Positions 7,355-26,603 of a stretch of DNA of 64,000 nt are shown piece by piece. The stretch is from Macrostomum lignano (lineage: Eukaryota): contig NIVC01001319.1 of assembly GCA_002269645.1 (NCBI GenBank), forward strand, positions 197,775 through 261,774. Direction: 5' to 3'. Position 1 is the stretch's first letter. Each line of letters starts with the position of its first letter. The translations under genes and the position numbers were made by a program. The notes below the pieces were generated by a model, which was not told the DNA's origin, did not search any database, and saw only the letters and a program-made list of their open reading frames with translations.

Positions 7355-7800
7355 AGTAGTATGAATTTATGCAACTCTGCCGCACTTGCACTGCGGAGAT
7401 AGGCAGTAATGTAAAAGGATAGGAGGGCGTAAAAGAGCCAGCTGAGATAGCCAATGGAAATAAGGGGCGTGGGGTAGGTGTGCGATTGGCTGGGTGGTGA
7501 AACGCTTATGCAGCTCTGCCGCACTGGGGGAGGCAGGTAGAAAGCAAAGATTTGGAAGGTTTTGGAATAGCAGAGTAAACAAATTAAAAACAAGGTAGGC
7601 ATGGCGTGAAAACGTCCACCTCAATTTGTGCCTGGCCTATGCAACTCCTCGGCGTCCCCACTGTGCTTATCCTATAGCATGTCTATGCAACTCTGCCGCA
7701 CTATTTGTCAGTGGAGTGAAGTAGATAAGAGAGAGGCTCTGGTCTTCTTGGGTGTCTGCCTCTGACCCCCTGGCATTGTTATTAAATGAGCAATAAACTT
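7355..7800 (+). repeat. Left TIR of the outer element (~446 bp)
   Basis: Reverse complement of 26159-26603 with scattered mismatches. Contains repeats of the motif GCAACTCTGCCGCAC (~7371, ~7687; variant ~7510). Confidence 0.9.
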
Positions 7801-7861
7801 AAAAGGGTTGTGTGGCTGATGCCGACGAGCAGCCGCTGCTTGATGCCGAATGAGCAAAAAA

Positions 7862-7915
7862 TGGGGTGGGTGCTCATTCTGACACCCACCCCACTCCGCT
7901 TTGAGGGTATATAAG
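7862..7915 (+). promoter_or_regulatory. 11-bp inverted repeat plus TATA box upstream of the PC4-like gene
   Basis: tggggtgggtg / cacccacccca at 7862-7893 and TATATAAG at 7908-7915, ~85 bp before the ATG. AATAAA signals follow at ~9003-9028. Confidence 0.6.
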
Positions 7916-7997
7916 CCCCCGATTTTTAAATTCAACGGTAAATCTATTTTTTCTTGAATTCGATTTCACAAGTTTTTCACAAGATTTTGTGTGAACT

Positions 7998-8729
7998 ATG
8001 GATATTAGTGAAGGTTACAGAGTGCAGGTCGAAGAATTCGAAGGCCAGGAATACATTGCGATCAGGAAGTTTTACCGACATGGCAGCACAGCAAGCCTCA
8101 AGCCTGGTGTTCCTGGTTTCAACTTGAATGTGCAGCAGTGGACGAAGCTAAAGGAGTCAAAGCGCTCCCTGGTGAAGTCGGCTCTGAATAACGAGGTCAA
8201 GGTCATCAAGCTGGGCTTGGACAAATTTGTTCAAGTCAAGGATGGCCTCATCTGGCTGAAGCGGCTGCCTGAGGACTGCTGTGATGAATTTATGAAGCGC
8301 AACACCGTGCCGCTGTCTCCGAGGCTCTGGCAGAAGCTGTGGCAGACTTCGGACTGGATAGACCAGCAGCCATCAGAGCCCTACCAAGGCGCGGGGGCGA
8401 AGTACGATCTGAGCTCATCCGAAGATGAGAACGAAGACGCCACCGTCATACTGCCAGTCAAAACTGAGGCTGCTGAAGGCGAGGAGAAGGTCGGCTCACC
8501 ATCGGAGATGACAACCGACATCGAGGCTGTGACTTCCACACCTTTGGCCAGAGCCGGCACATCGACTGGGAACATCCCGGCGGAGGACACGGACCTGCAG
8601 CAGGATCCCGTGTGGTACCGATTCCGGGCTCATGCCGCTGAGGTGGAGAACAATCGGAAGCGGAAACTGCCATATCCTCTGCGCAGGCAGGAAACAATGA
8701 AGGTGTCTAAGCTGCGTTTTGAAGACTGA
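7998..8729 (+). CDS. PC4/Sub1-like ssDNA-binding domain protein (probable tandem PC4 domains, acidic/basic tail)
   Basis: YRVQVEEFEGQEYIAIRKFY...KPGVPGFNLNVQQWTKLKE matches the PC4 motif (VSVRDFKGK..IDIREYW..KPGRKGISLNPEQWSQLKE). A second degenerate repeat ends in PLSPRLWQKL. The ORF is intact and intronless. Confidence 0.8.
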   Translation: MDISEGYRVQVEEFEGQEYIAIRKFYRHGSTASLKPGVPGFNLNVQQWTKLKESKRSLVKSALNNEVKVIKLGLDKFVQVKDGLIWLKRLPEDCCDEFMKRNTVPLSPRLWQKLWQTSDWIDQQPSEPYQGAGAKYDLSSSEDENEDATVILPVKTEAAEGEEKVGSPSEMTTDIEAVTSTPLARAGTSTGNIPAEDTDLQQDPVWYRFRAHAAEVENNRKRKLPYPLRRQETMKVSKLRFED

Positions 8730-9037
8730 GCTGGAGGTTGGATAAGACTGATGAGACTCAATGGATAATTCAGTTCTGTTTGATTTTGTCTAATTTTATT
8801 CAGCTAAGTAAGGTTTTGACAATTTTTGTAACCATTTAGTCTTATTTATTCAGGTGTTAACAAAACAAATTTATAAATGCATGCAGTTTATACTTATTTG
8901 CACTACTCAATGCTATTATTTCCTGCAATCTTCTTTTCAAGATAATCAACTGTTCGCAGTCCCCCGAGTTAAAAATATAATAAGTGTACACTTTATGAGT
9001 TGAATAAATGTCTAAATGAATAAATAAAGTAAATTGA

Positions 9038-9241
9038 TGTAACCGCCCTTGTCGCCTGTCCGCTCCGTAGAGAGACGAACGCATGACCAGAGGGGGCAAT
9101 GACCGTAGGCTGCCTATGACCGGGCAATGACCTGACGGACCTCCAGCACCAGAATGTCTCGCCCACATGATTGATAGCTTTGGTAGCGCTTTGTGACCAG
9201 AGGGCCAAGGACCCACATGGACCCCACCTGTAGCCAAGGTG
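9038..9241 (-). mobile_element. LTR-like repeat, part 1 (continues at 17884-18810), split by the inner Polinton-like element
   Basis: Reverse complement of 32690-32893. The segment 17890-18810 is the reverse complement of 31769-32689. Begins TGTAACC. Confidence 0.8.
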
Positions 9242-9538
9242 AGTAGTATACGTTTGTACGCTTCTAGACCCAGAGCCCCTAATCAAACAGGCGATTTGAA
9301 GGGCTAGAGGGGGGACACGAGGGGGGACCAAAAAACACATCTAAACACCCTCAACACAATTAAAACACCCCCAATACCCCCAACACCCCCAACACTACAC
9401 AATACTACTAACACTACCCAATACTACTAACACTTCCAAACAATTCCCTCGCGTCCCCCCATTATTAGCCCTTCAAATCACCCGTTTGATAAGTGACGGA
9501 TCTAGAAACGTACAAATGTATACTACTACTTATAACCC
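9242..9538 (+). repeat. Left TIR of the inner element, itself bounded by ~65-bp inverted arms
   Basis: Reverse complement of 17584-17883 with few mismatches. The arms at 9242-9306 and 9466-9527 are imperfect inverted repeats of each other. Confidence 0.92.
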
Positions 9539-10279
9539 CAGGCTTATTAACCTATCACTTTCATCTACGATCCTAATATAAATTGATTGGACTCTATATT
9601 GATTTAAAGGATAATATATTGGGGTTTGGGGTGCAACAATTATTTTCTCTCCAATTGGAACAGCAAGAAACGGGATTGAATAAATGATTCCACGTTGAAC
9701 CAAAACTCCATTATCATCTGTTATATAACCGCCGTTTGAAAGGTCGGTTGTTATATTAATTGTATTGACTCCACCCTCAATGTTTCCCACCGTATCGCCG
9801 GTGCTTGATGTGGTAACTATTCGGGAATTAAATCCAAGTATGGTTCTGAGTGAATTTGCAATTGTGAAATCAACCTGATATCCAGATCCTAGTGATAGGG
9901 TGAATCTGCCAGATGGTAAATCAACCCCTATAACAATTGCGCCTGCTACCCAATCACCATTAGCTGTTAATTCTCCTTCTATATAAGCATTCAAGTCAGT
10001 ATAGCTATAAGCCCCCGGATTAACACCAAATGTTGTCCAATTAGCTTCTGAATCTTTAGAATATTTAAATTGATTATTTGTTGCATTAATTAATTGAGGC
10101 ATGTTAAAAACCGAAAATAGTATCAAACCAATTTGATAACTTAGGCTTTGATCGAGTTGTAACGGATCGAGCAATTGAATCCGTTGCTCGCTGCTTGTCA
10201 TTATAAACTGTAAGGTTGTACTAAATTTTGAATTAGTTCGATCTACCAATTGTTTTATAGTGTCTAATTTTGTTGCCAT
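9530..10279 (-). CDS. Minor capsid protein (penton), Polinton/adintovirus type
   Basis: Motifs PLQLD..YQIGL..FSVFN..NNQFKY..PGAYSYTDLNAYI and ITTDLSNGGY..IIYSI..P.IYYPL..IYIRIVDE. The stop codon lies inside the TIR and the C-terminus looks clipped. Confidence 0.8.
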   Translation of the reverse strand: MATKLDTIKQLVDRTNSKFSTTLQFIMTSSEQRIQLLDPLQLDQSLSYQIGLILFSVFNMPQLINATNNQFKYSKDSEANWTTFGVNPGAYSYTDLNAYIEGELTANGDWVAGAIVIGVDLPSGRFTLSLGSGYQVDFTIANSLRTILGFNSRIVTTSSTGDTVGNIEGGVNTINITTDLSNGGYITDDNGVLVQRGIIYSIPFLAVPIGEKIIVAPQTPIYYPLNQYRVQSIYIRIVDESDRLISLGL

Positions 10280-10297
10280 TTTTATAGTGGGAAAGCT

Positions 10298-11059
10298 TTA
10301 ATCCTCGTCCTCATTATCTTCTTTTATAAGATCTTTTAAGATTCGATTTTTTCTTTCTAACCTAGGGTTGATATATATGTGTTTGTATTGACTATCATCC
10401 CAAATTTTTTTACACATGCTTTTGAATGGTTTTGCATCCAACCCTGGATTAAATCTCGCGTGTATATTTTATAGATCATAGTTATCTAAATCAAACATTA
10501 CACAACAGCTAGCATTCTTTTTTATAATCGATTCTAATTCTCTAAAGGACTGTGTTAGATAAAAAGCCCCAATTCCATCTCCTCTGCCACTAACAAAAAT
10601 ATCCTTTTGCAATTCTTGATCGCCGTCGTTAATACAATCATCAAAAATAATTAGTGTTTTATCATGTTTTGGAATTTGATCATAGGATAATCGGGTTGAT
10701 ACTCTAACAGTTGGAGAATTGTTGTCTATATTTTCTGGATCTTCTGCCGTTGTTTTACATAAATCCTCAATGTCTGCTAGATTAAATCGCGGTTCGTCAT
10801 CATCCTCATATTGCTCATAAGCTCTTAACATTCTAAACAAGATATCTTTTTTTAATTTGTTTTTTATTCCATGTTTAAGAAATTCATAATATTTTATTCT
10901 AGGTTTGTTAGTATATATTAATAAATTATTATAGTCTAACATTCCATCGGTTGTTAACAGGTCATAAACAAAGTGTGCTTTTCCTTTACCCGACCCACCA
11001 ATTACTAAACAAAGAAAAGGATCGTTTGGAAATATTTTATTATGTTTTGCTTTTACCAT
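10298..11059 (-). pseudogene. A32/FtsK-like packaging ATPase with a premature stop
   Basis: Walker A GGSGKGKA (A in place of T/S), Walker B LIIFDD, and SGR and YLTQS motifs. An in-frame TAA at 10469-10471 is followed by the expected C-terminus NIHARFNPGLDAKPFKSMCKKIWDDSQY up to a stop at 10298-10300. Confidence 0.88.
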
Positions 11060-11110
11060 TTTTAAGGATATAATTTAAATAGGCTCGACGGTCGGAGACC
11101 TGCACTCATT

Positions 11111-13240
11111 TTACAATGGCGCGTCCTGAACAACGGTACCATCTGCTTTAGCAATTGACATATATTCCTCTAGAAACAATACGTGGGCGTCTAGTGCCTG
11201 ATTACCGTTTTCATTATTCTCTAACATAATTCAAACCAACAGCGCCTACGTTTTCTTTCTGTGCGGTTAGATCAAAAACAACCACTGGGTGAATGTTTAG
11301 AAACTCTGTGGGTGTGTACTGAGGAACAGCATACGCTTCATTTTTGACATAATCCTGATAATATTTTATAAAATCATTAACATTATTATTTGCAAGATTT
11401 AGATTAAGGGGGTCTTTAACCGTGAAGTGATACATTTTGGCTCTAGAAAGCTCCCATCCAGATTGAATGTATTTTAACCAATGAATGCGCTCCAAATAGC
11501 AAAAGCTGAGGACACGACCCCAACCTCAACCAATGAAAAACAGTTATGTACCATCCAATGCGATTAAGACTGAAAAGTACTATTAAAGCTCATGTTAACC
11601 AAGCAAGAAGCTGGCCCTTTTTGCTCGCTCCGCCTCTCCTCGCCCTTGCCTCTCCTTCGCCATTCTCCTAGCTTACCTCGTTTGACTATTTTGATTGACA
11701 CAGTTAGGGTCTCAACCCAAACACCAAAACTTATAAGTCGACTTACTAAAGCCAAACCAACACCCAATCCACGTTTCACAATAGACTGAACCTTCGGTTC
11801 ACCCGAACAACTAGAAACACCTTGTGACTTAAATCGAACGAGCTTCTTATTTGGAATTCCACCTTAGACATTATATTTTGTGAGAAAACATCTCGAGATT
11901 GTGACCATCAAATACAACGGTCTGTAAGTTACCATCAAGTGTTTGCATCATCAGGAAAAGTCAGTTGAATCCGCCGCCTCAGTTATTTGGCTCTCACATT
12001 GATATTTGAAGTAGAACAAGAGCCATAGAAGTGAGAGACCAGAAGAAGAACAATAACCTACATTTTAAAATATTTCAACCGGATAATATTGATCATCAAC
12101 CTGCAGGCGGATATTCTGGACATTAAACTCGTTAATAGCCGAAACCGCGTTGTCAGTTGCGGTGGCCGCCTGTGCTGCTACATCTCCTGATTGAAGCCAA
12201 TATAAATCCCCGTTTGCTCTTTTACTCCTTCTATTTGTTATTTTAAACCAAACAAAAATATATCTCACCCGGCGTTTTGATGTCAGTATTTGCCACTGGA
12301 ATGAATCCTGATTGTTATTAACGGTTCGCATAAAGTGTCGACGATTTAAATAAAATATTTCTTGATCAACCAATAACTGATCATCGATGTGTTTTAAAAG
12401 CGGAGCTGTTACCTCTATAGTTGGTACGACTAATTGAATTGAAGCTATGCGAACTGCTATATCGGTTGAAATCGAAGTTCCATAAAGTATCCTAGGCTGA
12501 TATCCACCAGATATTTGCAACTGTATACCAAATTTTAATCCTTTCCATACACGATTTGGTGAGAAGAACCCAAATAGTGGGAAGATTGAAAAGTCCTGCT
12601 CATATGCGGTTGCCGTGGTTAAAACCGCGACTGGAAATTTATTCTGGCGATCTATAAAACCGGTGTTAATATCTTTTGTGTTAGTCATTGTAGTTACAAC
12701 TGGAACTATATTGGTATTAAGATAAGCTATAAGAGCTGCGGTATCTGCGCCAGCTGCGTTTTGTACGTTAGGGAAAACTACTGCTTGTCCATTACCCTTA
12801 TCCGGCATCCACCCAACACTATCACCAACTTGTTTTGATAAATAAGTATAATTTAAATGTTTCAAAACTTCATTAATCTCTGCTGGGTTTGTTGATGTCT
12901 CAACCTCGGCTCCATTAACTGTTAGTTGGGCTTGGGAAAAACATTTATAAAACCAATCATTTTCTATAATAATACCAGAACGATCTGCGATATCGCCGGC
13001 TGCAAGAGCAGTTCCATCATTTCTAGTATACAACCATCTAACGCGGAAAAACGCATTTTTCATATCCAATATGCTGTTGGTTGCGCCGATGTCAAATGTT
13101 ACTGTTCCCGTAGTAAAATTGTTTGAATTATCGCTTGTTGGTTGGGTAAAAATTAAATCTCTTTTCCTGACCTCGTTAATATACTGACGATATTTTTTGA
13201 AATGAAATTTATCACTCCATATGGTTTTTGTTTCAGCCAT
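11111..13240 (-). pseudogene. Major capsid protein (putative double jelly-roll), interrupted by a solo LTR and a frameshift
   Basis: Polinton MCP-like N-terminal ORF 12065..13240. Removing 11423-12077 plus one TSD rejoins QYYPV-KDPLNLNL..HPVVVFDLTAQ. A 1-nt frameshift near 11230 precedes the tail NENGNQALDAHVLFLEEY. About 490 aa when repaired. Confidence 0.82.
11423..12077 (+). mobile_element. Solo LTR (655 bp)
   Basis: TGAAG...TTTCA ends, 4-bp TSD ACCG (11419-11422 and 12078-12081), three CCAAT boxes and a TATA-like tattaaa at ~11580. Excision restores the MCP frame. Confidence 0.85.
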
Positions 13241-13274
13241 TTTTTAAAGTTAAAAAAGTTTTTTATGTTAAAAA

Positions 13275-13949
13275 ATGAGTCAATTTATGGATGTTGATGA
13301 AGAGTTAGCGATTTATAAAGAGAAGCAAAAATATTCTGATTTTGTTAGAAACTTACAAAAAAGAAAGTTAGGAATACAGCTAGCTGGTGAGAAATTTGCT
13401 GCTCCTTTTGTTAATCCTATTACGGGGAAAATTAGTGAACTAGAAAAAACAGATAAAGACCTTCTTGAAAAAATTGCTAAGAATACGGAGCCAAAAGAGG
13501 ATGAAATTTTGGATGAGCCGCCTGCTTATGATGTTGATCAAGCACTATTGAGAGTTGCAGAGATTAGACGTGCAGAACGGGGTGAAGTTGATGAATATCC
13601 GAGAGCTGCACCACAAAGTATTGCTGTGGTGGATTTAGGTAATGATAATTACCGAATTGGTGGGGTTGATAAAAATCGGAATGAGCTATATAGAGAATTG
13701 GGTGGAGCAAATAATATTATTATGAACCCTAGGGTAAGATTTAACCCTGAATTATATACTAGGGATGAATTAGTAAGTGCTAAAAATTTTTATGATGAGT
13801 TAGGAGTAAGAGCTGCTAAAAATACCAGCTTGTATAAAAGAATTGTTGATTCTATAAATAACAAACCGGCTGTTGGCGAAGGATTTAAAACTCCGCGAAA
13901 ACTTGTTTTAGCTGCTGCGAAAGCTGCTGGACATACAGGAATTAATTAA
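13275..13949 (+). CDS. Polinton accessory protein with an N-terminal coiled-coil (possibly PW-like)
   Basis: Intact 224-aa ORF with AAAAATG start context. The N-terminal ..LQKRKLGIQLAGEKFAAPFVNPITGKISEL resembles, from memory, a conserved Polinton ORF; unverified. Confidence 0.6.
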   Translation: MSQFMDVDEELAIYKEKQKYSDFVRNLQKRKLGIQLAGEKFAAPFVNPITGKISELEKTDKDLLEKIAKNTEPKEDEILDEPPAYDVDQALLRVAEIRRAERGEVDEYPRAAPQSIAVVDLGNDNYRIGGVDKNRNELYRELGGANNIIMNPRVRFNPELYTRDELVSAKNFYDELGVRAAKNTSLYKRIVDSINNKPAVGEGFKTPRKLVLAAAKAAGHTGIN

Positions 13950-13964
13950 ATTTATTTTTTTAAA

Positions 13965-14467
13965 ATGGAAAATACGATAAAAGATTGTCTTTGTAAACCT
14001 ATTTATGATAAAGTTGGTTCTGACAGAATACTAAATGAAATATTTCAAGATGAATTAATAATTTCAAATCGTATTAAAACAATTCAGATGCGCCATGGAT
14101 CTCTTTATGAATTATTAGCTATTAAACATTTTGGTTTTGAAAAAGTAAATAAAATTGATTTAATTCATACCGAAAGAAAAATTGCGTTAGAGTTAAAATC
14201 TTCTGATAATACAGATAATTCATCAAGTCGATTTAGAAATATTCAAAAGTTATTAGAATTTAAATATGTTAATCCCGAATTTGATTTATGTTATATTTGC
14301 ATTAATAATACTACTAAAAACCCGTACAAAAGGTATTTGTTAATGGTGTTACTTTGTTAAGTGGGGAATTTGCTTTAAATTTTTTATATGGTGATCAATA
14401 TTTGGAAATTATTAAACTGATAGAAACATGTTTTTTAAACATTAAAAATGAGCCAACTTGTGTTTGA
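13965..14467 (+). pseudogene. PD-(D/E)xK type II restriction-endonuclease-like protein (Eco47II-like), frameshifted
   Basis: Motifs KTIQMRHGSLYE..GF..ID..ELKSSDNTDNSSS..KL. A frameshift at the A-run ~14328-14331 opens KKVFVNGVTLLSGEFALNFLYGDQYLEIIKLI to a stop at 14465-14467. The family assignment is by motif recognition only. Confidence 0.6.
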
Positions 14468-16028
14468 AGGTGGATTGTTGGATGTTCAAAAAGGATTAAC
14501 AAGCTTACCAAGCGTTTTTACTACTGGAAAATATACAAATGAATTACACATACCAGGGTATTCGTAAGCAGGTTAACCCGTGGCCTGAGTGAGGAAGGCA
14601 ATGTCCTTGCTAGTCTGCTAGTCACTATTAGTGGCGACACCTTCAAATTGCGTGAAACGCGTCATACAGCTTCAAGTACCACTTTAACTGAGAAATCTTT
14701 TGAAGGAACAGAGGTAACTCCTCTTCCCAAAGGTAACAAGCTTGAAGACATGGTGGCAATGCGCAGCCAAGCTCCTAAGTATTTAATATAAGGAGAAGGT
14801 TCAGAGAGCAGACGGAGGTGGGCGGTAATCATCACCGCTTAAAGTGTGCTCCAGCCTCTTTCGAAAGATTGTGGGGAAACTACCGGGGACAAGATTGGAT
14901 TTGAGGTTAAATCCGGATGATACTCCAAAGCCTGATTCAATTCCTATTAATGGCATTGATTGGTTAGCCTATTATCACGACTTAGCATACAGAGATGCTG
15001 ATAAGAACTCCCCCGAGGAAGCATTAAGATTAAAACATGAAGCCGATCGAAAAATGATTCAAGGATTAGATAATCTACAGGGCTTATCGGTAAGCCAAAG
15101 ATTAACTCGGTGGATGGTTAAAAAGATCTTGCAGTCTAAAGTTAAATTTGGTTTGGGAATTAATTACAATCAACATGGAAATAGTTGTGTTGATTGTCTG
15201 TTATTAAGTGGTGGTGGGTTAAGTTCTGATGAGGCAAAGGTTCTTCACAAAGAATACCGAAAGCCTAAATTTTATAGAAAAATCATGAACTTCAAAAAGA
15301 ATGAAATTTGGTATGCTGATTTAATGTCAATGCCGAACGAAAGAGGATATAAATATATCTTAACCATACTGGATGGTTTTACTCGATACGCGTGGGCTGT
15401 TCCTTTAAAATCCAAAAAAGGAGAGGAGGTTGCTGCTGCTTTTAGAAGCCTTGGAGAAAAAAGTGAAAGCTTGTGTGTTGACGAAGGAAAAGAATTTTAC
15501 AATCCTCACATGTATAAATTGTATCATTTTGAAAAAGGACAAGAAAGGAAAAAGGACGCGAATGGGGAGTATATTAATAAAATTTATTCTATTTATGGAG
15601 AAAGTAAAAACGCACTTATTGAAAGATTTAATCGAACTTTAGGTAAGAAATTGTGGTTTCAGTTTAGTTTGAATGGAAACCAAAAGTGGGTAAAAATATT
15701 GCCAGACGTTGTTAAAGATTATAATAATTCATATCATTCGGCTATAAAGATGACTCCTCAACAATCTTATAACAATCCTGAAAATGTTAAGGTTACCTTC
15801 GGGGACTTTGAAAAAAATAAAAAGAAACCTTTTAAGGTTGGTGATTCTGTTTATATCTATAAATGGAAAGATAAGTTTGAAAAAGGAAGAAAAGGATATT
15901 GGAAAATAAGTGAGAAATTTACTATCAGTAAAGTTTTAAATACAAATCCTACAACCTATATCATTGCTGATAAAGATGGTGAAGAAATATTGCGTTCTTT
16001 TTATGAGAACCAGATAATGTTAGTTTAG
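14448..16028 (+). pseudogene. Phospholipase A2-like (parvovirus/adintovirus type) plus retroviral-like DDE integrase fusion; exons 14448-14573 and 14883-16028
   Basis: Spliced product ELHIPGYS*AG|PGTRLDLRL..PINGID..AYYHDLAY (PLA2 Ca-loop and HD dyad). The rve core shows WYADL / VDEGKEF / IERFNRTL, then YNNSYHSAIKMTP and FKVGD. One in-frame TAA at 14565-14567 sits where Tyr/Phe is expected. Confidence 0.9.
14574..14882 (+). ncRNA. Group I self-splicing intron, IC1-like (with P5abc), no internal ORF
   Basis: P1: exon CAGGU pairs with IGS GCCUG (14583-14587) with the U.G pair at the splice site. P3: 14638-14644 with 14814-14820. P4: UGCGUG with UGCGCA. P5a A-rich bulge GGUAACAAGCU and a GAAA-looped P5b. 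P6a: CUCCU with AGGAG. P7: GAGCA (14806-14810) with UGCUC (14847-14851). P8: GGCGGU with ACCGCU. Removal restores G-P-G-T in frame. The terminal base is A rather than the expected omega-G. Confidence 0.88.
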
Positions 16029-16343
16029 TTTTATACTTTTAGTGACTCTAGGGGGTGGTGTATTTTTATCATCTGTTAATAAAGTTTTAAATGGTGTAGA
16101 GTATTCTTTATATTTAAATGAGTTAATAATTTGTTCAAGTTCAAAATACCATTCATCTCTATAAACTGGCGTTTTGAAATTGAACAAATTATCATTAAGA
16201 TATTCACTAACTTGAACTTCAATAGATTTGGTGTCGTATTTTTCTGGAAATTCTTTTATTAAATCTTTAATTTCATCTGTGGTTAATGGGTATATTTTTA
16301 CTCCTCGAATTTCTACATGTTTTATTAAATCCTTTTTTATCAT
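16020..16343 (-). CDS. Small hypothetical protein, KIYPL-motif family (paralog 1)
   Basis: IKHVEIRGVKIYPLTTDEI; the N-terminus may extend upstream through a frameshift. Confidence 0.6.
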   Translation of the reverse strand: MIKKDLIKHVEIRGVKIYPLTTDEIKDLIKEFPEKYDTKSIEVQVSEYLNDNLFNFKTPVYRDEWYFELEQIINSFKYKEYSTPFKTLLTDDKNTPPPRVTKSIKLN

Positions 16344-16354
16344 CTCTTTGATTT

Positions 16355-16738
16355 CTACCGTCTTATTAATAAAAATTTTTTAAGTTTTTCATAATTACCC
16401 TTCTCTATGCCATGTTTGTTAATAGTTTTTAGTGGTGGTAATGAATACTCTTTATATTTAAGATTACGAACATCAGCAAAAATATTCATTGCTGACTTAA
16501 ATGATCGTAAAGCTAGTTGATAATTATTCAAATATGTAACCAAATCAATAACATCATCAGTAATAATAATATTACTAACAAAGCTCAGGTGTCTTTTTTT
16601 AGTTTTATATTCTAGTTGGTTAATTTCAGATGGTTTTAATGGATATATTTTTACTCCTTCTAATAGTACAATTTTTATTAAACCATCATCTATCTTCTGT
16701 TTTAGATCTTTTAACCTTTGGCCAATTTCTGATTCCAT
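16355..16738 (-). CDS. Small hypothetical protein, KIYPL-motif family (paralog 2)
   Basis: IKIVLLEGVKIYPLKPSEI; AAAAATG start context; shares KYKEYS with paralog 1. Confidence 0.65.
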   Translation of the reverse strand: MESEIGQRLKDLKQKIDDGLIKIVLLEGVKIYPLKPSEINQLEYKTKKRHLSFVSNIIITDDVIDLVTYLNNYQLALRSFKSAMNIFADVRNLKYKEYSLPPLKTINKHGIEKGNYEKLKKFLLIRR

Positions 16739-16928
16739 TTTTATGGATAAATTTTATATAATTGTTTATTTGAGACAGCAAGGTAATAATTTTTTTATAA
16801 CATATAAAAACAATATTATCACTATTATTGTTACTAATAATTTTTTGACATTTGTTCAACCGTTATCAAACTTAAATTTTCATTAAGTTCATTAATTGGC
16901 ACATTTCCGATATAGGAATAATTTACCT

Positions 16929-17222
16929 TCATTTTTTATATATATTTTTAACAATAAATGTTGTTTCTGTTACAGAGTAATAGTTCATTTTTTTAATATT
17001 TTTTTCGCAGTTTAAACATTGTGCTAAAAGAAGACTTTGCTCCCCCTTATCCCAAATATAATCTAATTCTCCAATTTCAAGCGGATATATCTTTATATCT
17101 GGAAAAATATATACTTCATCGATTGTTTTATCCTTTAATAATTTTTTTATTGAATCGAGTGCATTGAACATTGTTTGGGTTGATTCAGTTATTGAAAAGT
17201 AGAGTCTGTTAACTAATTCCAT
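16929..17222 (-). CDS. Small hypothetical protein, KIYPL-motif family (paralog 3)
   Basis: NRLYFSI...IDEVYIFPDIKIYPLEIGEL; AAAAATG start context. Confidence 0.65.
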   Translation of the reverse strand: MELVNRLYFSITESTQTMFNALDSIKKLLKDKTIDEVYIFPDIKIYPLEIGELDYIWDKGEQSLLLAQCLNCEKNIKKMNYYSVTETTFIVKNIYKK

Positions 17223-17224
17223 TT

Positions 17225-17539
17225 TTACATAAAAATTTCACTTTCATTCTCCGAATCGCTAGTTTCATATGAACTATTTGTTGAGTTGGAATCATCTGAA
17301 CGAACCTCCCAATCATCCGAATTTAAATAATCTCCAAGTTGAAATATTAACTCCCCCTCTTGTTCTAAATCATACATCCCATCCAACTCTAGCGGATAAA
17401 GTTTTAGTTCTGTTTTGTCATCATATTTTAAATAAACTTCATCAATTATTCCATTCAAAATATGCTGTTTTATAATCTCTGAATTTTTAGCAACAGTCTC
17501 AAAAGTATCACTAACTGAAAAGGTGTAAACTCGGTTCAT
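17225..17539 (-). CDS. Small hypothetical protein, KIYPL-motif family (paralog 4), acidic tail
   Basis: MNRVYTFSV...IDEVYLKY..KLYPLELDG. The likely start is the AAAAATG at 17539, not the track start inside the TIR. Confidence 0.65.
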   Translation of the reverse strand: MNRVYTFSVSDTFETVAKNSEIIKQHILNGIIDEVYLKYDDKTELKLYPLELDGMYDLEQEGELIFQLGDYLNSDDWEVRSDDSNSTNSSYETSDSENESEIFM

Positions 17540-17583
17540 TTTTAGTAACAGAAAAAGACCCTTCGCGCCGCAGGCGCGGCGAC

Positions 17584-17883
17584 GGGTTATATGTAGTAGT
17601 AGGCATTTGTACGCTTCTAGATCCGTCACTTATCAAACGGGTGATTTGAAGGGCTAATAATGGGGGGACGCGAGGGAATTGTTTGGAAGTGTTAGTAGTA
17701 TTGGGTAGTGTTAGTAGTATTGTGTAGTGTTGGGGGTGTTGGGGGGTATTGGGGGTGTTTTAATTGTGTTGAGGGTGTTTAGATGTGTTTTTTGGTTCCC
17801 CCCTCGTGTCCCCCCCTCTAACCCTTCAAATCGCCTGTTTGATTAGGGGCTCTGGGTCTAGAAGCGTACAAATGTATACTACT
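17584..17883 (-). repeat. Right TIR of the inner element
   Basis: Inverted copy of 9242-9538; G-run-rich core at ~17730-17780. Confidence 0.92.
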
Positions 17884-18810
17884 AAGGTGCAATAGTTGGT
17901 CACTCGGTCATAGTATGACCGAGTGGCTGCCACCACTCTATGTGACCTGGCGCACCTGGATCTTTCTACCAGACCTCTCGAGGCTAGAGCCCCGCCTGGG
18001 ATGGTTACCAGGAGATTTAGGCTAACAGGGGAGACACATGCAGCCGAGTACAGGGACTCTGCTTGGGGCATGATCGGGAACTCTGGGCTCAATCTGGAGG
18101 ATTTCTCAGCAGGGGATCCTTTGTGGCTGTGAGCGAGGCTGACTTGCGACTTTGATTACTAAGAGTAGTATGAGGGGAACATGTACTGTCTACAGTTTAG
18201 ATTGCTCAGGGCGAAGGGACGCGTCAGCATCGGGTTGCAACCTTCCTACTGCCATTCTGTGCCAAGACTCGCTAATCCCTCTACTGCACGCACACACGGC
18301 ACCGCAGCACGCACTCACAGGCGGGCTTTGCATGGGAGAGGCCATTAGCTTACCCAAACTTCCTTATGCTTAGCCACCCCGGGAGAAAGGCTTAGCAAGC
18401 CATGAGTGAAATGATGGTGAAAGAGTGAATAATGATGAGGTTAGTTAATAGTTAATAATTAGGCCCTAAGGCAAATAGTCAGGCAATTAGGCGGCTTCAC
18501 TATTGAGTAAAATACAGCAAAAGTTACGGTATCACAATTGGCTCAGCTCTCTAATTAAGCAATGGCAAATAGGCAAACCCCGGATAAGTAAAGGCGATTG
18601 GAGCACAAATTAGTAATAGGAACTTACCGGCAGCTGCACAGAGAGAGAGAGCGGCGGAGTGACCGAGGGCGGCTGTAGGCTGCAGTCAGGCAGACAGTGA
18701 AGCGGCGATGCGCTGAAGCGACGAGGCGCTGATGTAGATCAGGCGATGCTGATGATGCTGGGCGGTACCAGACCGCTGGCCGATAGACGAGCTTACTTGG
18801 GAGCTAAGGT
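17884..18810 (-). mobile_element. LTR-like repeat, part 2 (truncated at 18810)
   Basis: Near-identical reverse complement of 31769-32695. Confidence 0.8.
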
Positions 18811-20345
18811 CAACCAACGAGCCAACGAGTTCTACCCGAAAATGGACAGCAGTGGATCCCCTGGACCCTGAAAGTTCAGGGTTCCCCAGCGTTGACGAAA
18901 GAAATCTGGAAGAGCTTAGCATCGGCCCATACCACGTTCTTCAGTCAAAACGCTACATCGAAAACGTCAGAGTTCATGAGGTGCTCAGTAGCTACGCTGG
19001 AGACTCGTGGCGCGATTTCGAATTGTTGATTTCTGAACTGCCAAGCCATTTAAAATGCTGGAAGTTTCATCAGCGAGCGCCACCAAAGGGGTGGAGCAGT
19101 AAGTTTGGAGAATGGAGGCCATCTTGGATATATTTAGCCGTTCTTCATTCCCGTCATCGGTCAAAAACTTACCGAGTTGTCCTTCGTATTTGCGAAACTG
19201 CAAGTGGTAACCGATTCGGAGTTCGTGACTCGGGGCTGCTGCGTCTGCATGGCTACTTTTCATCCTTAAAGGCCGGAAGCAGGACAGCAGGGTGTGACAG
19301 TCATGTTATGGCTGTGGTTAGAATGCTAGGCTGTTATGCATATCACCCCGAAAGCTACAACATGTGCGGCAGCAGCTTCCGATTTATTGACAGTGCTTTG
19401 CCAAAAGCACTGATTGCCAATCTTTACAATGATCAATCTGGTGGTCATCCAGCTCCAAATGCACCTCGCAGAGACAGTGCTGAATCGCAGCAAGATGAAC
19501 AGAGGCACAGTTTAAATGCTACTGGTTCATTGAATTCGCCGAAGAAGTTATTTGGGTTGCCAAATAATGGCCTGCAGTGCTACGTAAATGCAGCAGTGCA
19601 ATTGTTTCTCTGCCTGCATTCTAATGGATGCATTTTAAAAGAGACTAGCAACGACTAGCATCGAGAGCTGCTTCGTCTTCTGACGGAGATGCAACAGCGG
19701 TCTGCAACAGTCACTCCACTGTTAACGGCAGTTCGGTTGCAACATCCAGATTCATTTCAAACAAATCAGCACCATTGCGTCAACGAATTTGTTCAAACGC
19801 TTCTAATACATCTGGAATTTCTGTCATCAGATACTTTCACAGAATTTTCACTCATTCAAACTTGTCGGGATTGCCAGCGCACAAGTGCTGAAGTTCCTGT
19901 TGGCACAATCGATAACAGAGTGATTTGCATTCCTCTCTGTCAATTTGAGCGCTCAATTGTCAGTTTAGACAAAATCTTCTGCGCTTTTGTCGCTCCTCAA
20001 GTAGTGAAATGTTCGGACGCCAATTGCCTGGGCGATTGTAATCGAGAGATCGTAGTAACACCTGGAAAGTTTACCCTGATTTATCTTGATCGTGCTAGTA
20101 TGGATGGCCACCTAAAGCTTCAAACTCCTGTAAGCTTTTCTTCAAGGTCAGGGGGTGTTTCTACACTTGGTAAGCCAGTGGCCACAATATCACACCATGG
20201 AAACCGACTGAAATCGGGACATTTCACAGCAAGCGTACTGAGCTGTGTGTGGACGAATATTGACGACATGAAAGTTACGTCAGACTATAACCCGTTCGTA
20301 CGTGAGCCTGAGTGCATCGTGCTCGTTGCACTTTTAAACTCGTAA
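18811..20345 (+). pseudogene. 5'-truncated ISL2EU-like (DDE_Tnp_4) transposase C-terminus with SWIM-like finger, fused in frame to a USP/peptidase C19 domain
   Basis: KW..D..FP..E..L...G.YH..QSKRYI..HSRH..KTY..KAGSRTAGCDSHV..V..LG. USP Cys box GLPNNGLQCYVNAAVQ and His box HHGNRLKSGHFTA..W..IDDMKV. ORFs 18852 and 19689 are in the same frame, split by a single TAG at 19656-19658. Confidence 0.7.
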
Positions 20346-21015
20346 AAGCATTTTTAGCGAAAATACAATTGTTTTAAGCGAGTGTACTGTACGTTTTGTA
20401 TTGTAGATTTTAAAGGACATGCAGATTAAGAAACAATGTCATATCACGCATTCTTTACGTACCATAGGTTACATGTGAAGATAATTCAGACTGACATCAA
20501 ATAACAAAAGCTTTGAATTAGTTGTTTCAATTTCTTTTAGACTCACAATTAGCTTTTTTTACTGAAGCAAAGAACTTAAACCCAAAAACCGTTTCTTAGG
20601 ACTGAGAAACTTTTGCAATTATGATTTTACTAAGCTTTGCGTGAGAGGCGTTACTTTATTTGCTTAAAAACGTGTGCTGCTTTGCATGACATGCTTTGTT
20701 TTTATTACTTTGATAACTTGTACAGCTTTGCATGATATGCTTTGTATCCATTACGTCATAACTTGTACAGCCTTGCGTGATATTCTTTATTTTACCAATA
20801 TACATGGTTTCGGTTTATCGTCAAAAGTTCTGCTTACTAATAACCAAACGAATTTACAAGTTAATTTTTTCAAACTGAGTTTCCAGGTCGGCATTTTTAA
20901 CAGGTTTCGATACGAGCAAATCATTTTTATTATTTAACAATCAATGTATAATAGCTGAAATAAAATACACCCGCTAATGCGATATTCGAATTGAATAGAG
21001 CTTCGTCACTTGAAA

Positions 21016-21287
21016 CCGGATGGGATGTCTCGGCGATTCTAGTCGTCTGGGCCGACAAGTTATCGATTGCAGTCGGTTTGGTCCGGAGCTGAACTTCGGG
21101 CTCCATTCCAGAGCCTTAAGTTGACATGAGATCCCCAATTTATCCCCTTTATCCCCTGGGACCCCAATGAAGGGAGCCGGATGGGATGTCTCGGCGATTC
21201 TAGTCGTCTGGGCGGACAAGTTATCGATTTCAGTCGGTTTGGTCCGGAGCTGAACTTCGGGCTCCATTCTGGTGCTTAAGTTGACAT
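21016..21287 (+). repeat. Direct repeat of a ~112-bp hairpin-rich unit (21016-21127 and 21177-21287)
   Basis: Two near-identical copies separated by a 49-bp spacer. Confidence 0.9.
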
Positions 21288-21388
21288 CCCCTTTTCGCGA
21301 GCAGTGCGAGCGGGCGTACGCACCGGGGACAGCTCCAGAACGCGACTATATTTGGATCAGCGACGACTAAGAGGAGGGTGACAGCGAG

Positions 21389-21982
21389 ATGGAATCGGAG
21401 TTGGAAGACATACCGGATGTCCTAGCGTGGAAGCTGGTGTTGGCAGGGCGACAAGTGGTAGACCCGGAACGATTGGTGTTGCCAACGTCTGTAGAGTTTG
21501 GGGAGCTGCGGAAGAAGCTGAGAGAAGCTCTGCTAGCTGGCGAAGAGGTGGAGATTTGGCAGGCGATGAGGCGTCTGTGCGAGATGTTCGTAGCGCGAGG
21601 GGAAGAGCCCCGAAGATACGTCACGGCCGCGCTGGTTCAGGTGCTGAAGTTCTTGCGGCGTGATCTGTCGGTAACGTGGTCAAAGGGCCGCGGTCGACGC
21701 CGGGGTTGGAAGGTGGAGCGGTTGAGAAAGGCGGTGAGAGCGGTGAACGCGGTGGTTGAGCAGTACGATCTGCTGCAAGCCGGTCACGTGAGGAGGCTGC
21801 TGCGCTGGTGTGCTCGGGTGGTGGCGTGCGAGTTGCTAGTAGAGTGTGAGTGTGGGTTGTGCTGGGGGTGCGGGCCCCGTCGTGCGGGTCCGGTTGTTCG
21901 TTTCCCTGTCCCTCGTGCTGGTGCGTGTATCCTATTTTCCATATTAGTCGTATGCTGTTGGGTTACCGTACGGGTGGTATGA
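21389..21982 (+). CDS. GC-rich orphan ORF, 197 aa, with a CxCxxCxxC cluster
   Basis: Open ATG-started frame with helical composition; no family recognised. Confidence 0.4.
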   Translation: MESELEDIPDVLAWKLVLAGRQVVDPERLVLPTSVEFGELRKKLREALLAGEEVEIWQAMRRLCEMFVARGEEPRRYVTAALVQVLKFLRRDLSVTWSKGRGRRRGWKVERLRKAVRAVNAVVEQYDLLQAGHVRRLLRWCARVVACELLVECECGLCWGCGPRRAGPVVRFPVPRAGACILFSILVVCCWVTVRVV

Positions 21983-22741
21983 GGGTTAGGTAGAGAGGCA
22001 GCCGGGAGACTGAAGGCGGGAGGTGCACGGTTGGCGAGCACTTGGTCGTCCAGTGTGGGTAGCCATGGCGGCGGCCGGGTGAGCAGCAGTGGCGTGCTCC
22101 ACTCAACTGATGGTCCCAGGCCAAGCGGGTTCCAGCGGACGCCAAGCGGTCACCGGGCAGAAGCTTTAAATCTGGTGACGCAGACGCCAGCGCCGGAACC
22201 CCGTACCCAGGCCAGCTATCGAGAGTCAACGGCGCAGGGACGAGAAAGGGCAGCCGACTCGGCAAGGATGTGCAGAGGGACAGTGCGGTGGAGAACGGTG
22301 ACTAGCTCTGATCCTTTATCATTAAACCCTTTTGCGTCGTTCATCGTTAAATCATTGGTGTCAGAATTCCATAAATCTTTTTGCGTCACTAGCATTCAAG
22401 TTTTTTTGCGTTGTCAACGTTCGAATTTTTGCGGTATCACATGGTAGTTCCTTTTGTCATCATTGATTCAACTGTTTGCTTTATTTCGTGTTCCCATCGA
22501 TTTCATGTACGCGTGTTGTCAGTCATGTAGGTCAGGCAGGCGTGGAACCCGTCGCCCAAGTGCGGTGCAGGTTGTGCAGCTGTGGTGTCATTCGTTGTCA
22601 TTCGTTTCTGCAATCTGCGTTACTGGCTCGTATCAGCTTCTTCCTTTTGTTGGGAGGCGGGTGTTGTGTTGTGCACTTTTGCGGTGCCTGTGCACCTAGC
22701 TCCAGCGGGCTGAGTCACCTGTTGGCCTATGGGTTTTTTTG

Positions 22742-23131
22742 TTATCCCCCCCTTTTTTCGTTTCCGTTGCCGCTTCCACCGCCGCTTCCACCGCCGCTTC
22801 CGCTGTTGAAGCTGTTAAAGCCACCGCTTTCACTTGCGCTGTCTTCTGAACATCTAGAAGTTAAACTACTATTGCTGCGTCTGTCGAATGCAAGGATCTT
22901 GTAGTTGCAGAGATGTGAGACATCGATTGAATCTGAATCTTCGGTGGAACTAGAATCTGACAAATCGTCAGCAGATTCTGACAAGCCGTCAACAGATTCT
23001 GACAAATCGGCAGCAGATTCTGACAAAGTTTCAGCTGAATCCGACAAATCTTCCCGAGATTCAAGCTTCAACAAATTCTGAGCCGACTCCGATGCATCTT
23101 CGGAAGAATCTGTCAGGTTGACCCAGTCCAT
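22742..23131 (-). CDS. Ser/Asp/Glu-rich low-complexity ORF with 7-aa repeats and a GS linker
   Basis: 21-bp repeats (gcagattctgacaaatcgtca) and gccgcttccacc repeats; coding status uncertain. Confidence 0.3.
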   Translation of the reverse strand: MDWVNLTDSSEDASESAQNLLKLESREDLSDSAETLSESAADLSESVDGLSESADDLSDSSSTEDSDSIDVSHLCNYKILAFDRRSNSSLTSRCSEDSASESGGFNSFNSGSGGGSGGGSGNGNEKRGG

Positions 23132-23959
23132 ATCACCGGTCCTGTCATTCAGTTACTATTAACGACCGTTATTCGGCTGTAAGATGCAGCGTCAAAGTGC
23201 GATAAAATTTAGATTCATTATTCAAAATTTTATACTGTAAATATTTGCTTTTCCTTACAGTATGCTGACTATACTACATGAAATCAATGTACATATGTAA
23301 AATGAAATAAAAAAACACAAGATCTAACATGTTCATCCAAAATAAACTACTGAATCATATCAGACTGTAAAACTTTAAACTTATATTTGTCAAACTTTCA
23401 AGGTGTTCAGCCACAGAGACAGCAGGTAAGTTTCAAACACCCGAAATATTAATGCAAAAACTTGTATTCATAGTTGAGTCGACAATTACATGATGGGCTT
23501 ATTTAATTGTACTTGATACTACTAAAAGCTATGCTGCCCATAATATTATATCTGGCTTTGATAATCGCTATTAATTAAAACAAAAAACATTTGTCGGCTT
23601 ATTGTAAATCAAATAAAAGCTTAAGTATATTTTAAAGTAAAAAATTAAGGTTTTTTTAAGTAAAATAATTAAGGTAAAACTGACTTTTAAGAGACACCAC
23701 AATACGTTTTCACATTTAAAGCGTGACCAATAATTCGCTTACTCAACGAGACACAAAAATAATGCTGTCATTTTCAATTTTTACAATATATCTAGCTCCA
23801 ATTACTGGTGGCAGCACGAGTTGCAGCTGGTATCGAGTTACGACATTGTTAGCAGCTTCCAATGCACCGTCTCCCAATACCTCCATCAGGGAATCCAATC
23901 CAGCCGGTTCTTCAATAATGTTTGGCTAGGCCATCTGTTCACCAATGTTGATTCTTGAA

Positions 23960-24150
23960 AGCTGCTCGACGTTGACACCAGGCAGTGGCTGCCCGTTGAC
24001 ACCATTCAGCGGCTGCTCGTTGGCGTCAGGCAGCGGCTGATCGTTGACACCATTCAGCGGCTGCTCGGTGACACCATTCAGCGGCTGCTCGTTGCCACCA
24101 TTCAGCGGCTGCCCGTTGACACCATTAAACGGCTGCTTGTTGGCGTCAGT
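23960..24150 (-). repeat. 24-bp tandem repeat reading NEQPLNGV on the minus strand
   Basis: caccattcagcggctgctcgttg units. The frame continues to ~23740 with one TAG, so this may be a decayed exon. Confidence 0.7.
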
Positions 24151-26158
24151 GCATTCAATACTGTGACGAAGTTAATTATTAGCTGTTACGAAGTTAATTA
24201 TTAGCTGTTTATTTAATTAGATTGCACATCCACACGAATGGTATGAGACCAAGCCACGCGAAGCGTTACAAAAAAACGAGCGCGCGACAATTCAAATTGG
24301 CGGGAAACTCCGGTGCACTTAAACCTAAGATGCCTAACTAGAAAAACACTAACAATAGCTACGAGTACAGAATAATTAATACAACTTAAAGAGCGAATTT
24401 ATATATTAAATAATATCGAACCAATAGTCGCAAAACCTCCAATTTACTTAAATAAAACTGATTTCAAATAGAAACCTCAAAATCAGATAGAACCTAAAAA
24501 TGAAAGGTGTTAACGACCTCGTGACACAACACCGTCACACCCGCTCCTCCACCAAAAAAGAACGCTAAGCATACTACTGAAAGTCACGACAACGTAACAC
24601 TGATCGGACATCCTTACTCGAAAAAACATGTATCAATATGACTTACTTTACTTTACGAATCTGAATCAAACTAGGAGCGACTATTCGAACGACATATATT
24701 ACATTACCGAAATGAAAAAAAATATTTGAACGAATTGAGATATTTGAACGAACTATTGAAATGAGCGTTACTTCGAGTCACAACTAAAAAAAACGAATGC
24801 AAATGCAAATGGTTGTGATGACGCAACCTGCTGGAATAAAACTCAGTCACGACGCAGCTGCAGATGGACACGTGACCACTGCAAACGAGCCGACAGCGCC
24901 ACCGACCAGGCCAGCGCCAGCACGAGCCAGACCAGCAGCCACCGCGCCGACGACCGCCGAAGGCCCCGACTATCTCCGCGCAGCGACCAGGCGATTCACG
25001 CCGCCCATAGCCGATCCGCAGACGCCTAACGGCCCGCTCCGAACCATTCAGACCCGCACGAGGCAGCCGAGCGCAACCCTCCGGTTCACACCCCACATAC
25101 ACACGGCAGGCACACACTAGACTACTCCAGAGCTACTCCACCAGCAACAAATAACAACAAATTGGGTCTAAGTGCTAAGTCAAACACTTTGAGAAACCAC
25201 ACCAGTCCCTTTAGTGTGATTTACTGTACTTTTTGGTAAAAGAATGGAACCCGACGACTAATTGTAAGTTATCACAAAGGACTCCCAGTTAAGTAAGCGT
25301 TGGGTTGATCTCTTCGCTTTTTCAGTTTATTCGACCTTCATAATTATTGGCTGCTGGTGGTTTTGTCGGCAAGTCACAGTTGGGCTTTGTTTTTACGCGG
25401 ATTTCCCATTTTTTGTTTGCTAATTACTCGTTATGTGCGTATTAATAACGAATAAAGGCTTAAGTTCGTTACAGACTGACGCTATGAGAAGCAGGTGAAT
25501 ATTTGAATATTTTGTAATTACAAAAATATATAAACTTATATAACAAAACAGGAATCTAAACATTACTCTAGCAGAACAAGAAGTGCTCACGGAAGCAAAC
25601 AATCTTTCTCACGAATCGCACATCGTTTATGAAAACGATAGTTGTGCGTGAGGCATCAGGGCAATATGAGTGTTGCTAATGACACAATTGCCGTCAATTT
25701 CACGTAACGCTACAGAGTAGGCATGAGAGTCAAGTTTATTAGCAAACGCATCACATGTTAGGCGTCTAACATGAGCCAGACGGCAACAGCGCACATTAGA
25801 ATCTTGCGATACGCCTGCTTGTTCGAAAGGTGTACCAATCTCTAGTTCTTCCACACAGAGATTTTATAGCATCACTCGAACGTCCTCGTTGGATGCGTTC
25901 ATATATATGCATATATACATGTGTATATCTATATATAGTGCATATAGTGCATAGTGCATAGTGCATATAGTGCATATTGGTATATATATATGAACCACTA
26001 AGGGTCTTTATCTTGTTTATTTCTTCTCGTATTTTTTATTTATGTATTATTATATGCTATAATACAAGTACGCTCGTACGCTCGTACTATTATATTCACT
26101 ACCCCCTCCAATCATATCAGAGCAGCAAGAAGCCCACCCCACAACACAACCCGTTACA

Positions 26159-26603
26159 AAGTTTATTGCTCATTTATTAACAATGCCAGTGCGCCAGAGG
26201 CAGACACCCAAGAAGACCAGAGCCTCTCTCTTATCTACTTCACTCCACTGACAAATAGTGCGGCAGAGTTGCATAGACATGCTATAGGATAAGCACAGTG
26301 GGGACGCCGAGGAGTTGCATAGGCCAGGCACAAATTGAGGTGGACGTTTCCACGCTATGCCTACCTTGTTTTTAATTTGTTTACTCTGCTATTCCAAAAC
26401 CTTCCAATTATTTGCTTTGCTACCTGCCCCACAAAGCGGCAGAGTTGAATAAGCGTTTTACCACCCAGCCAATCGCACACCTACCCCACGCCCCTTATTT
26501 CCATTGGCTATCTCAGCTGGCTCTTTTACGCCCTCCTATCATTTTACATTACTGCCTATCTCCGCAGTACAAGTGCGGCAGAGTTGCATAAACTCATACT
26601 ACT
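26159..26603 (-). repeat. Right TIR of the outer element
   Basis: Inverted copy of 7355-7800. Confidence 0.9.

Follow-up and report, generated by a model that had tools for sequence, protein, structure and literature searches.

A 309-nt insert that splits the gene for the PLA2-integrase in an endogenous Polinton-type element is a real group I ribozyme intron, and with its relatives it probably represents a homing system in Polintons of an animal nucleus, served by a type of nuclease that we have not found described for eukaryotic elements. From comparison of its genomic copies, we give about 0.7 as the probability that the intron is a mobile (homing) one that belongs to animal Polintons. The introns occupy a fixed site, are optional there, fold into a paired ribozyme and travel with a nuclease. 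The animal-Polinton host and the site within a PLA2 motif were not found described, while group I introns of protist Polinton-like viruses (PLVs) and of giant viruses, and introns that end in A, are already in print. Below, 'the window' means the whole stretch of DNA analysed (64 000 nt).

The element and its animal host

The host element is bounded by terminal inverted repeats (TIRs) at positions 9242 to 17883 of the window (8.6 kb; Table 1). It has the TIRs, 6-bp target-site duplication (TSD), rve integrase and packaging ATPase of a Polinton, but lacks PolB: the ORF list holds no polymerase-B-sized ORF between the inverted repeats. At least 11 sister intron copies do have a PolB match (PF03175) 8–10.5 kb upstream on the same strand (91 of 974 candidates were scored), so full Polinton-type elements belong to the family. 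It behaves as Polintons do, and the window copy is a small, non-autonomous member without a polymerase gene. Its exact terminus pattern occurs at four places in the genome.

Table 1. Coordinates of the Polinton-type element, its genes and its intron in the window.
Feature	Position	Strand	Basis or remark
Left 6-bp target-site duplication	9236..9241	.	Identical to 17884–17889
Left terminal inverted repeat, starts AGTAGT	9242..9538	.	Arms 93–97% complementary
255-aa ORF	9530..10297	-	ORF list; Pfam scan without a match
A32-like packaging ATPase ORF	10469..11074	-	Pox_A32, E 9e-5
Probable double jelly-roll major capsid protein	12065..13243	-	Atlas feature matches 0.95–0.97
Free-standing PD-(D/E)XK nuclease gene, Eco47II-like	13965..14462	+	PF09553, E 0.001
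Exon 1 of PLA2-integrase gene, 42 codons	14448..14573	+	Last base U at 14573
Group I intron, ORF-less, IC1-like, terminal A	14574..14882	+	RF00028, helices, intronless alleles
Catalytic core: P7 5' strand, P3 3' strand, P8, J8/7, P7 3' strand	14804..14852	+	
Exon 2: remaining PLA2 domain fused to rve integrase, 381 open codons	14883..16028	+	
Right terminal inverted repeat	17584..17883	.	Complementary to left arm
Right 6-bp target-site duplication	17884..17889	.	Identical to 9236–9241

The ORF assigned to the major capsid protein matches Atlas clusters with Capsid_N, DJR-like and Sputnik MCP members; the recognition value is low, and with the Atlas as the only lead its product is probably a jelly-roll capsid protein. 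To judge by resemblance, the 255-aa ORF may encode a minor capsid protein. Exon 2 gave Pfam matches to rve (E 2e-7) and Phospholip_A2_4 (E 0.028), and both domains are present in homologues. Within the intron, the 5' and 3' strands of P7 lie at 14804–14810 and 14847–14852, with the guanosine-binding pair 14806–14851 kept. The nuclease frame of the window copy is broken near 14330–14360, its intron has private changes in J8/7 and P9 (14843 and 14872) and an 8-nt duplication at 14608–14615, and its exon 1 carries a stop codon at 14565–14567 that is likewise private, being found in one of 30 copies of the same intron family. The window gene is dead through this private stop codon, and not through the terminal A of its intron.

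The Polinton is enclosed in a larger unit (7355–26603) that has 95–97% inverted repeats (7355–7800 and 26159–26603) as its bounds and includes a PC4-like ORF (7995–8729) and a ubiquitin-protease-like ORF (19659–20345). Elsewhere in the window, 18491–18810 and 29681–30000 are perfect inverted copies of each other over at least 320 nt, up to the edge of the region searched, and long satellite arrays with a unit of 18–24 nt lie in 36000–64000.

The genome (764 Mb) yielded 86 Wnt-family matches, many as separate exons, from which we conclude that the host is an animal. On contigs C67, C393, C506 and C952 Wnt genes lie together with intron copies, which are found on more than a hundred contigs in all. 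Many Wnt loci recur two to four times at equal scores, as in a redundant assembly, and the copy counts given below are therefore inflated.

Ribozyme fold, intron families and empty alleles

A DNA search of the genome returned 198 candidates, the best 39 of which, besides the window, are 87–92% identical over intron and flanks. A pattern for the intron core matched 136 times in the genome and not once in the control; the 100 of these matches that were listed split, by hand count, into 82 of family A, the window type, and 18 of family B. The two families share one insertion site, which lies where the PLA2-integrase gene encodes its conserved PLA2 motif, while differing in length (836–895 nt in family B vs 309 nt for the ORF-less window intron). 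With a pattern for the empty site we found 22 intronless alleles (19 of B type and three of A type; 21 were read in detail), none with a duplication at the insertion site. These alleles fix both boundaries of the intron and show that it is optional. Among 56 integrase homologues that show the site, 49, all from other assemblies, are intact; seven lack exon 1, two of which start with the 3' tail of the intron.

The Rfam model RF00028 matches the window at 14564–14873 with 48.7 bits (E 2.7e-11), 1.3 bits below its gathering score of 50. On five sister loci it scored 62–65 bits in three and gave no match at E 0.01 in two, and a search of the whole genome produced 28 scored matches of 73–91 bits, every one of them in family B. 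On the window copy we could draw P1, P2, P2.1, P3, P4, P5abc, P6, P7, P8, P9 and P9.0. The U.G splice-site pair of P1 is kept in all 57 mapped copies of both families and the G264–C311 guanosine-site pair in 52 of 54 parsed copies; both pairs of P9.0, which support the 3' end, are likewise present in 52 of 54. Placing the 3' splice site at an in-frame G farther upstream would break P9 and P9.0, and we ruled that site out on structure only.

For the covariation analysis identical rows were merged, two of 27 family B rows without an anchor were excluded, and pairs in P6a, P8, outer P2, P2.1 and P5 were realigned or dropped, to give a set of 68 helix pairs in 35 distinct rows. In this set 98.7% of cells are paired and 15 of the 68 pairs have changed on both sides, in P2, P3, P4, P5, P5a, P5b, P5c, P7 and P9; in the terminal-A rows alone nine pairs have done so. 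Control partners slid by 1–3 columns gave 40–52% pairing and 1–4 two-sided changes, a comparison in which the true helices are favoured by having been drawn on the window copy; since, in addition, the rows share ancestry and pairs with a poor alignment were left out, none of these counts is a probability. The folding energy of the whole intron was no better than that of shuffles (z −0.71) and is thus uninformative, so that the case rests on the covariance model, the covariation and the empty alleles.

P2.1, P5abc with an A-rich bulge, a GAAA loop and an 11-nt receptor are the hallmarks of subgroup IC1. Our copies have P2.1, P5abc and the A-rich bulge; the GAAA loop is present in 57 of 57, and UAUGG, of the 11-nt-receptor type, occurs in three A and 20 B copies, with a one-base variant in 27 A copies. 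Only one P9 hairpin was seen, as compared with the P9.1/P9.2 extension of IC1. Taken together, P2.1, P5abc, the GAAA loop and the receptor-like motif would fit an assignment to IC1. Families A and B differ at three pairs of P7, each compensated, and both keep the guanosine-binding pair. The closest sequence relatives found are introns of environmental virus contigs, about 68–77% identical over 120–190 nt. Similar small hairpins are seen in P5, P6 and P8 of family B introns and at the start of exon 1, where five loci (L009, L011, L012, L022 and L027) have in-frame, GC-rich mini-hairpin inserts of varying length after the start codon.

Much of this had been proposed by a sequence-only reading of the window, which saw the insert as a group I intron, IC1-like, that interrupts the PLA2-integrase gene of an endogenous Polinton-like virus; RF00028, the TIRs, the TSD and the domains agree with it. 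Its boundaries proved exact, the insert beginning after the U that ends exon 1 and the frame resuming at PGT. It had also described the U.G pair of P1 and a P7 of GAGCA/UGCUC, altered on both strands together, and each is borne out by the copies above. The RF00028 search that it proposed gave the match just under the gathering score; sister copies with and without the intron, and with a terminal G, for which it suggested looking, exist in the genome; and the homologous copies covary. The dispersed repeat that it named as the alternative does not agree with empty alleles that lack a duplication.

Between families A and B the intron is 78% identical in nucleotides and the host protein 60% identical, and the branch sums that separate them are about 0.44 for the intron and about 3.2 for exon 2, a weak contrast, since slower change is to be expected of a ribozyme core than of a coding exon. 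Occupied and empty family B alleles match over 60 nt on either flank, apart from positions −6, −4, −1 and +3, and from −6 to +3 the occupied B alleles resemble family A; the differences at −4 and −1 are no proof of co-conversion, since P1 pairing would select the same bases. The closeness of the introns and the resemblance at the junction are thus two weak signs in keeping with transfer from one lineage to another. In loci L001–L030 the final six codons of exon 1 vary (GYSY, GYSF, SYNF, SMNF, SHNF) within an otherwise conserved motif, and this variety could be escape from the nuclease.

The intron-linked nuclease and the terminal base

Family B introns are longer because they hold an ORF inserted in, and looped out of, P2.1; it has 228 codons in 11 of the 27 copies mapped, and its frame continues into the ribozyme core. 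In the window the homologous gene lies outside the intron and ends at the start of exon 1, and the protein of an open family A sister copy is 65% identical to that of family B. A nuclease gene is present at 28 of 28 family B loci, at 12 of 30 family A loci and at none of 22 intronless loci (1.5-kb flanks), and its motif occurs 68 times in the genome. All 11 aligned proteins contain the Eco47II-family domain PF09553 at E values of 0.1 or lower, the best being 2.6e-8. A structural model (pLDDT 89.6) has EcoO109I as its closest fold (Z 9.6, rmsd 3.4, 153 aligned; next 6.0), and as modelled the intron-linked protein has the fold of a PD-(D/E)XK restriction-type nuclease. A PDB sequence search with the nuclease profile gave nothing significant, single-protein queries found no close relatives in viral contigs, and the homing enzyme I-Ssp6803I, a possible relative, is absent from the best 50 fold matches listed.

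In other assemblies, four of nine close nuclease homologues have translated sequence of this intron core at their end, so the link between nuclease and intron is old and the system reaches beyond this assembly. More distant kin (28–37% identity) occur in giant-virus-type contigs, 15 of the 24 loci scanned having no group I match at the cut-off. In a tree rooted on these kin, whose bootstrap is not fully settled, the free-standing A proteins nest among the intron-encoded ones (supports 96/92 and 97/92), which suggests that the nuclease entered the intron and may later have left it in family A. Ten family A-type nuclease motifs have no intron core among the matches listed (contigs C166, C349, C904, C1063, C1064, C1197, C1307, C1405, C1867 and C4898). 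At C954:75635–78753 three copies of the nuclease motif lie upstream of a single intron core at a spacing of about 1.5 kb, possibly a tandem duplication inside the intron.

The majority of family A introns end in A: exact patterns gave 81 A vs 12 G, a looser pattern 50 A vs 21 G among its first 100 rows (hand count), and 22 of 30 fetched copies end in A, as does the window, while G ends all 27 mapped family B copies. In a control set of viral RPB1 genes, 64 of 65 distinct canonical introns end in G and one in A, so the share of A in family A is exceptional. Nor is it general G-to-A decay, since 17 of 20 other columns of the intron in TG context show no A. In the intron tree of family A, terminal A stands at the base, and it goes with six exon-1 types (weak supports). 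The dN/dS among terminal-A copies is 0.29 in exon 1 and 0.07 in the PLA2 part of exon 2, values that may reflect time spent in other alleles, the copies being mosaics.

Two giant-virus RPB1 introns that lie inside the catalytic motif, before its EMN codons (L270 and L246), also end in A; they are 87% identical, one with a canonical and one with a variant P7. We considered the variant P7 as a compensation that allows terminal A, and this is ruled out. The variant P7 with its J8/7 was found in 13 IMG/VR contigs, six with an RF00028 match on that core, and of six ends readable against the host frame five are G and one is A; the canonical-P7 intron that is 87% identical (199/230) to this A-ended variant also ends in A; and family A copies that end in G have the variant P7 as well. 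The variant is thus neither needed nor sufficient; the two may be loosely associated. The same five-base switch (P7 GAGCA/UGCUC with G at position 306 in J8/7) recurs at loci L233–L247 in phage nrdD, in multi-intron phage loci and in giant-virus RPB1, and looks like a convergent alternative core.

We lean modestly towards the view that terminal-A copies splice usefully. When contigs assembled from three runs presumed to be RNA and one of uncertain type were compared with a terminal-A sister locus, no intron-size joint was seen among the matches listed, and some contigs cross the unspliced 3' junction. The 23S intron of Coxiella reportedly has a terminal A. It and the sea-anemone mitochondrial ND5-717 intron are single and fixed, whereas here A and G alleles occur in dozens of copies on the same core. 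The ND5-717 intron ends in A and is described, in passages of PMC8146996, as yielding ligated mRNA.

Other claims of the sequence-only reading fared less evenly. It judged the window copy dead from a TAA near the 5' splice site and from the terminal A: the stop is present and private, and the J8/7 and P9 changes point the same way, but terminal A, the majority state of a family whose exons are under purifying selection, and one with a ligating counterpart in the sea anemone, is no sign of death. That this lineage needed self-splicing is contradicted by the intronless alleles, and nothing supports a gating of integration or entry. Its remark that such introns were undescribed for Polintons has to yield to group I introns reported in protist PLVs (passages of PMC12220804). 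It was right about the intron and the element, but named neither an animal host nor a second family nor the nuclease.

Proposed cycle, rival readings and related systems

In outline, guanosine would attack at P1 and exon joining, guided by P9.0 and P10, would then rejoin the PLA2 motif, following the established two-step group I chemistry (PMC3679873, in part); without splicing, exon 1 would stop within a few codons of the intron start. The nuclease would cut the empty site in sister elements, and repair would copy the intron in, as passages of PMC3943268 describe for homing nucleases. In family A the nuclease gene would have left the intron and would now be undergoing loss, P7 would have been altered by paired substitutions, and terminal A would have become common, being tolerated, perhaps at the price of slower exon joining. 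The full picture, an active homing system in an animal nucleus with a restriction-type nuclease from giant-virus relatives, three states and a sub-lineage that joins exons after a terminal A, is one we hold tentatively, at slightly under even odds.

Terminal-A copies might instead be splicing-dead passengers, so that only terminal-G and intronless elements make full PLA2-integrase; the terminal-A elements would then be copied and integrated by proteins acting in trans, or would make integrase alone from an internal start after the PLA2 part, and an in-frame Met does lie about 58 codons into exon 2. Such copies are broken at a higher rate (8 of 22 have both exons open, vs 6 of 8 terminal-G copies) and less often linked to PolB (of 11 linked copies six end in G, four in A and one was unread; p 0.055 in a hand comparison of copies that are not independent), and terminal A is rare elsewhere, as the RPB1 control shows. 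Yet of the variant pair types in the terminal-A rows 21 preserve pairing and four disrupt it, the split PLA2 halves are under purifying selection, and neither the basal place of terminal A, with its six exon-1 types, nor the A-free TG-context columns suit a decaying passenger, a reading we think unlikely. Of the same low probability is an intron that splices but spreads with its element or by ordinary recombination, the nuclease being a restriction-like passenger, with rival elements or viruses as its conceivable targets, that at some time landed in an intron loop where it did no harm. Its type II restriction enzyme fold, the 18 of 30 family A loci without a nuclease and the giant-virus-type relatives, mostly at loci with no group I match, would suit such a role; the lack of a nuclease within 1.5 kb of any intronless locus, and the close homologues elsewhere that run into ribozyme-core translation, would not.

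Far less probable than either is an origin of the elements in a protist or algal contaminant or symbiont, which would make this one more case of the PLV introns known from protists. All PLV group I introns published so far do come from protists, and the nearest intron relatives found lie in environmental virus contigs, but the Wnt genes on four shared contigs, the spread of copies over more than a hundred contigs and the target duplications of the window element, which sits among satellites and other repeats, argue for residence in the animal genome. A spliceosomal intron or dispersed repeat that happens to resemble a ribozyme could draw on the AG/GT two bases before the 5' junction, on a window score just below the Rfam cut-off and on an ordinary folding energy. 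Against it, all 57 mapped copies begin with TA and none with GT, and every fetched copy lies at one site in one gene; the family B RF00028 matches, the strong covariation and the empty alleles without duplication refute this reading, and we give it next to no weight.

I-Ssp6803I, which resides in a cyanobacterial tRNA intron, is like the present nuclease an intron-encoded enzyme of restriction-type fold. Our enzyme, possibly its relative, differs in the Eco47II Pfam match, the EcoO109I fold and the giant-virus kin. Passages of PMC3943268 name I-Ssp6803I as a PD-(D/E)XK homing endonuclease; among the literature matches listed such homing enzymes are from bacteria and phages only, and the present nuclease was not found described.

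Passages of PMC12220804 report RF00028 introns of about 300–370 nt in integrated PLVs of Rhodomonas lacustris, Desmodesmus armatus and Paulinella micropora, in many copies of nuclear-integrated capsid-coding elements, those of Rhodomonas at a short gene that lacks annotation and precedes the MCP (Paulinella has 53 introns by the text but 5 by Table S11, whose 51 rows divide as 44, 2 and 5). The size, the model and the many-copy integrated, capsid-coding setting are as here, whereas the hosts there are protists and here we have an animal and the PLA2-motif site of an integrase gene; a nuclease, splice sites, empty alleles and terminal A are not described in those passages and the Table S11 intron rows. 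The group I introns in polr2a and polr2b of Bodo saltans virus, nuclease-bearing and ORF-less, with splicing seen by RT-PCR (PMC5871332, in part), resemble ours in lying in protein genes of a eukaryotic DNA virus and in having both nuclease forms. Their nucleases are HNH and GIY-YIG, however, and that virus replicates in cytoplasmic factories, without being a many-copy resident of an animal genome.

According to passages of PMC3679873, nuclear group I introns are exclusive to the rRNA genes of microbial eukaryotes, and nuclear homing enzymes are all His-Cys. Those introns are nuclear, IC1-like and carry the nuclease in a peripheral loop, as here, but ours lie in a protein gene of an animal and have a PD-(D/E)XK fold. 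Collaborative homing of phage introns with free-standing nucleases (Bonocora and Shub, 2009; Zeng, 2009, as cited in parts of PMC11296320) resembles family A in its ORF-less intron beside a separate nuclease gene; there the free-standing gene is proposed to precede entry into the intron, whereas our tree suggests that the gene left the intron again. Animal group I introns are reported only from mitochondria of early-branching groups, plus shark spacer introns (passages of PMC8393795, PMC10964413 and PMC8146996). Our literature search, which covered few subscription journals, found no description of group I introns in animal Polintons, Mavericks or adintoviruses, and introns are mentioned only in passing in the parts covered of PMC11296320 and bioRxiv 10.1101/2023.08.22.554363.

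One genome here holds occupied and empty alleles, a nuclease inside the intron, outside it or lost, and both A and G at the end of the same core, so that the homing cycle and the need for a terminal G become testable on natural sequences. Annotation blind to the intron would call such integrase genes truncated. If the homing reading is true, the nuclease would be a new small family of homing enzymes, the restriction of nuclear group I introns to rRNA genes would reflect no barrier of cell biology, and integrating DNA viruses would be able to carry ribozymes into animal genomes.
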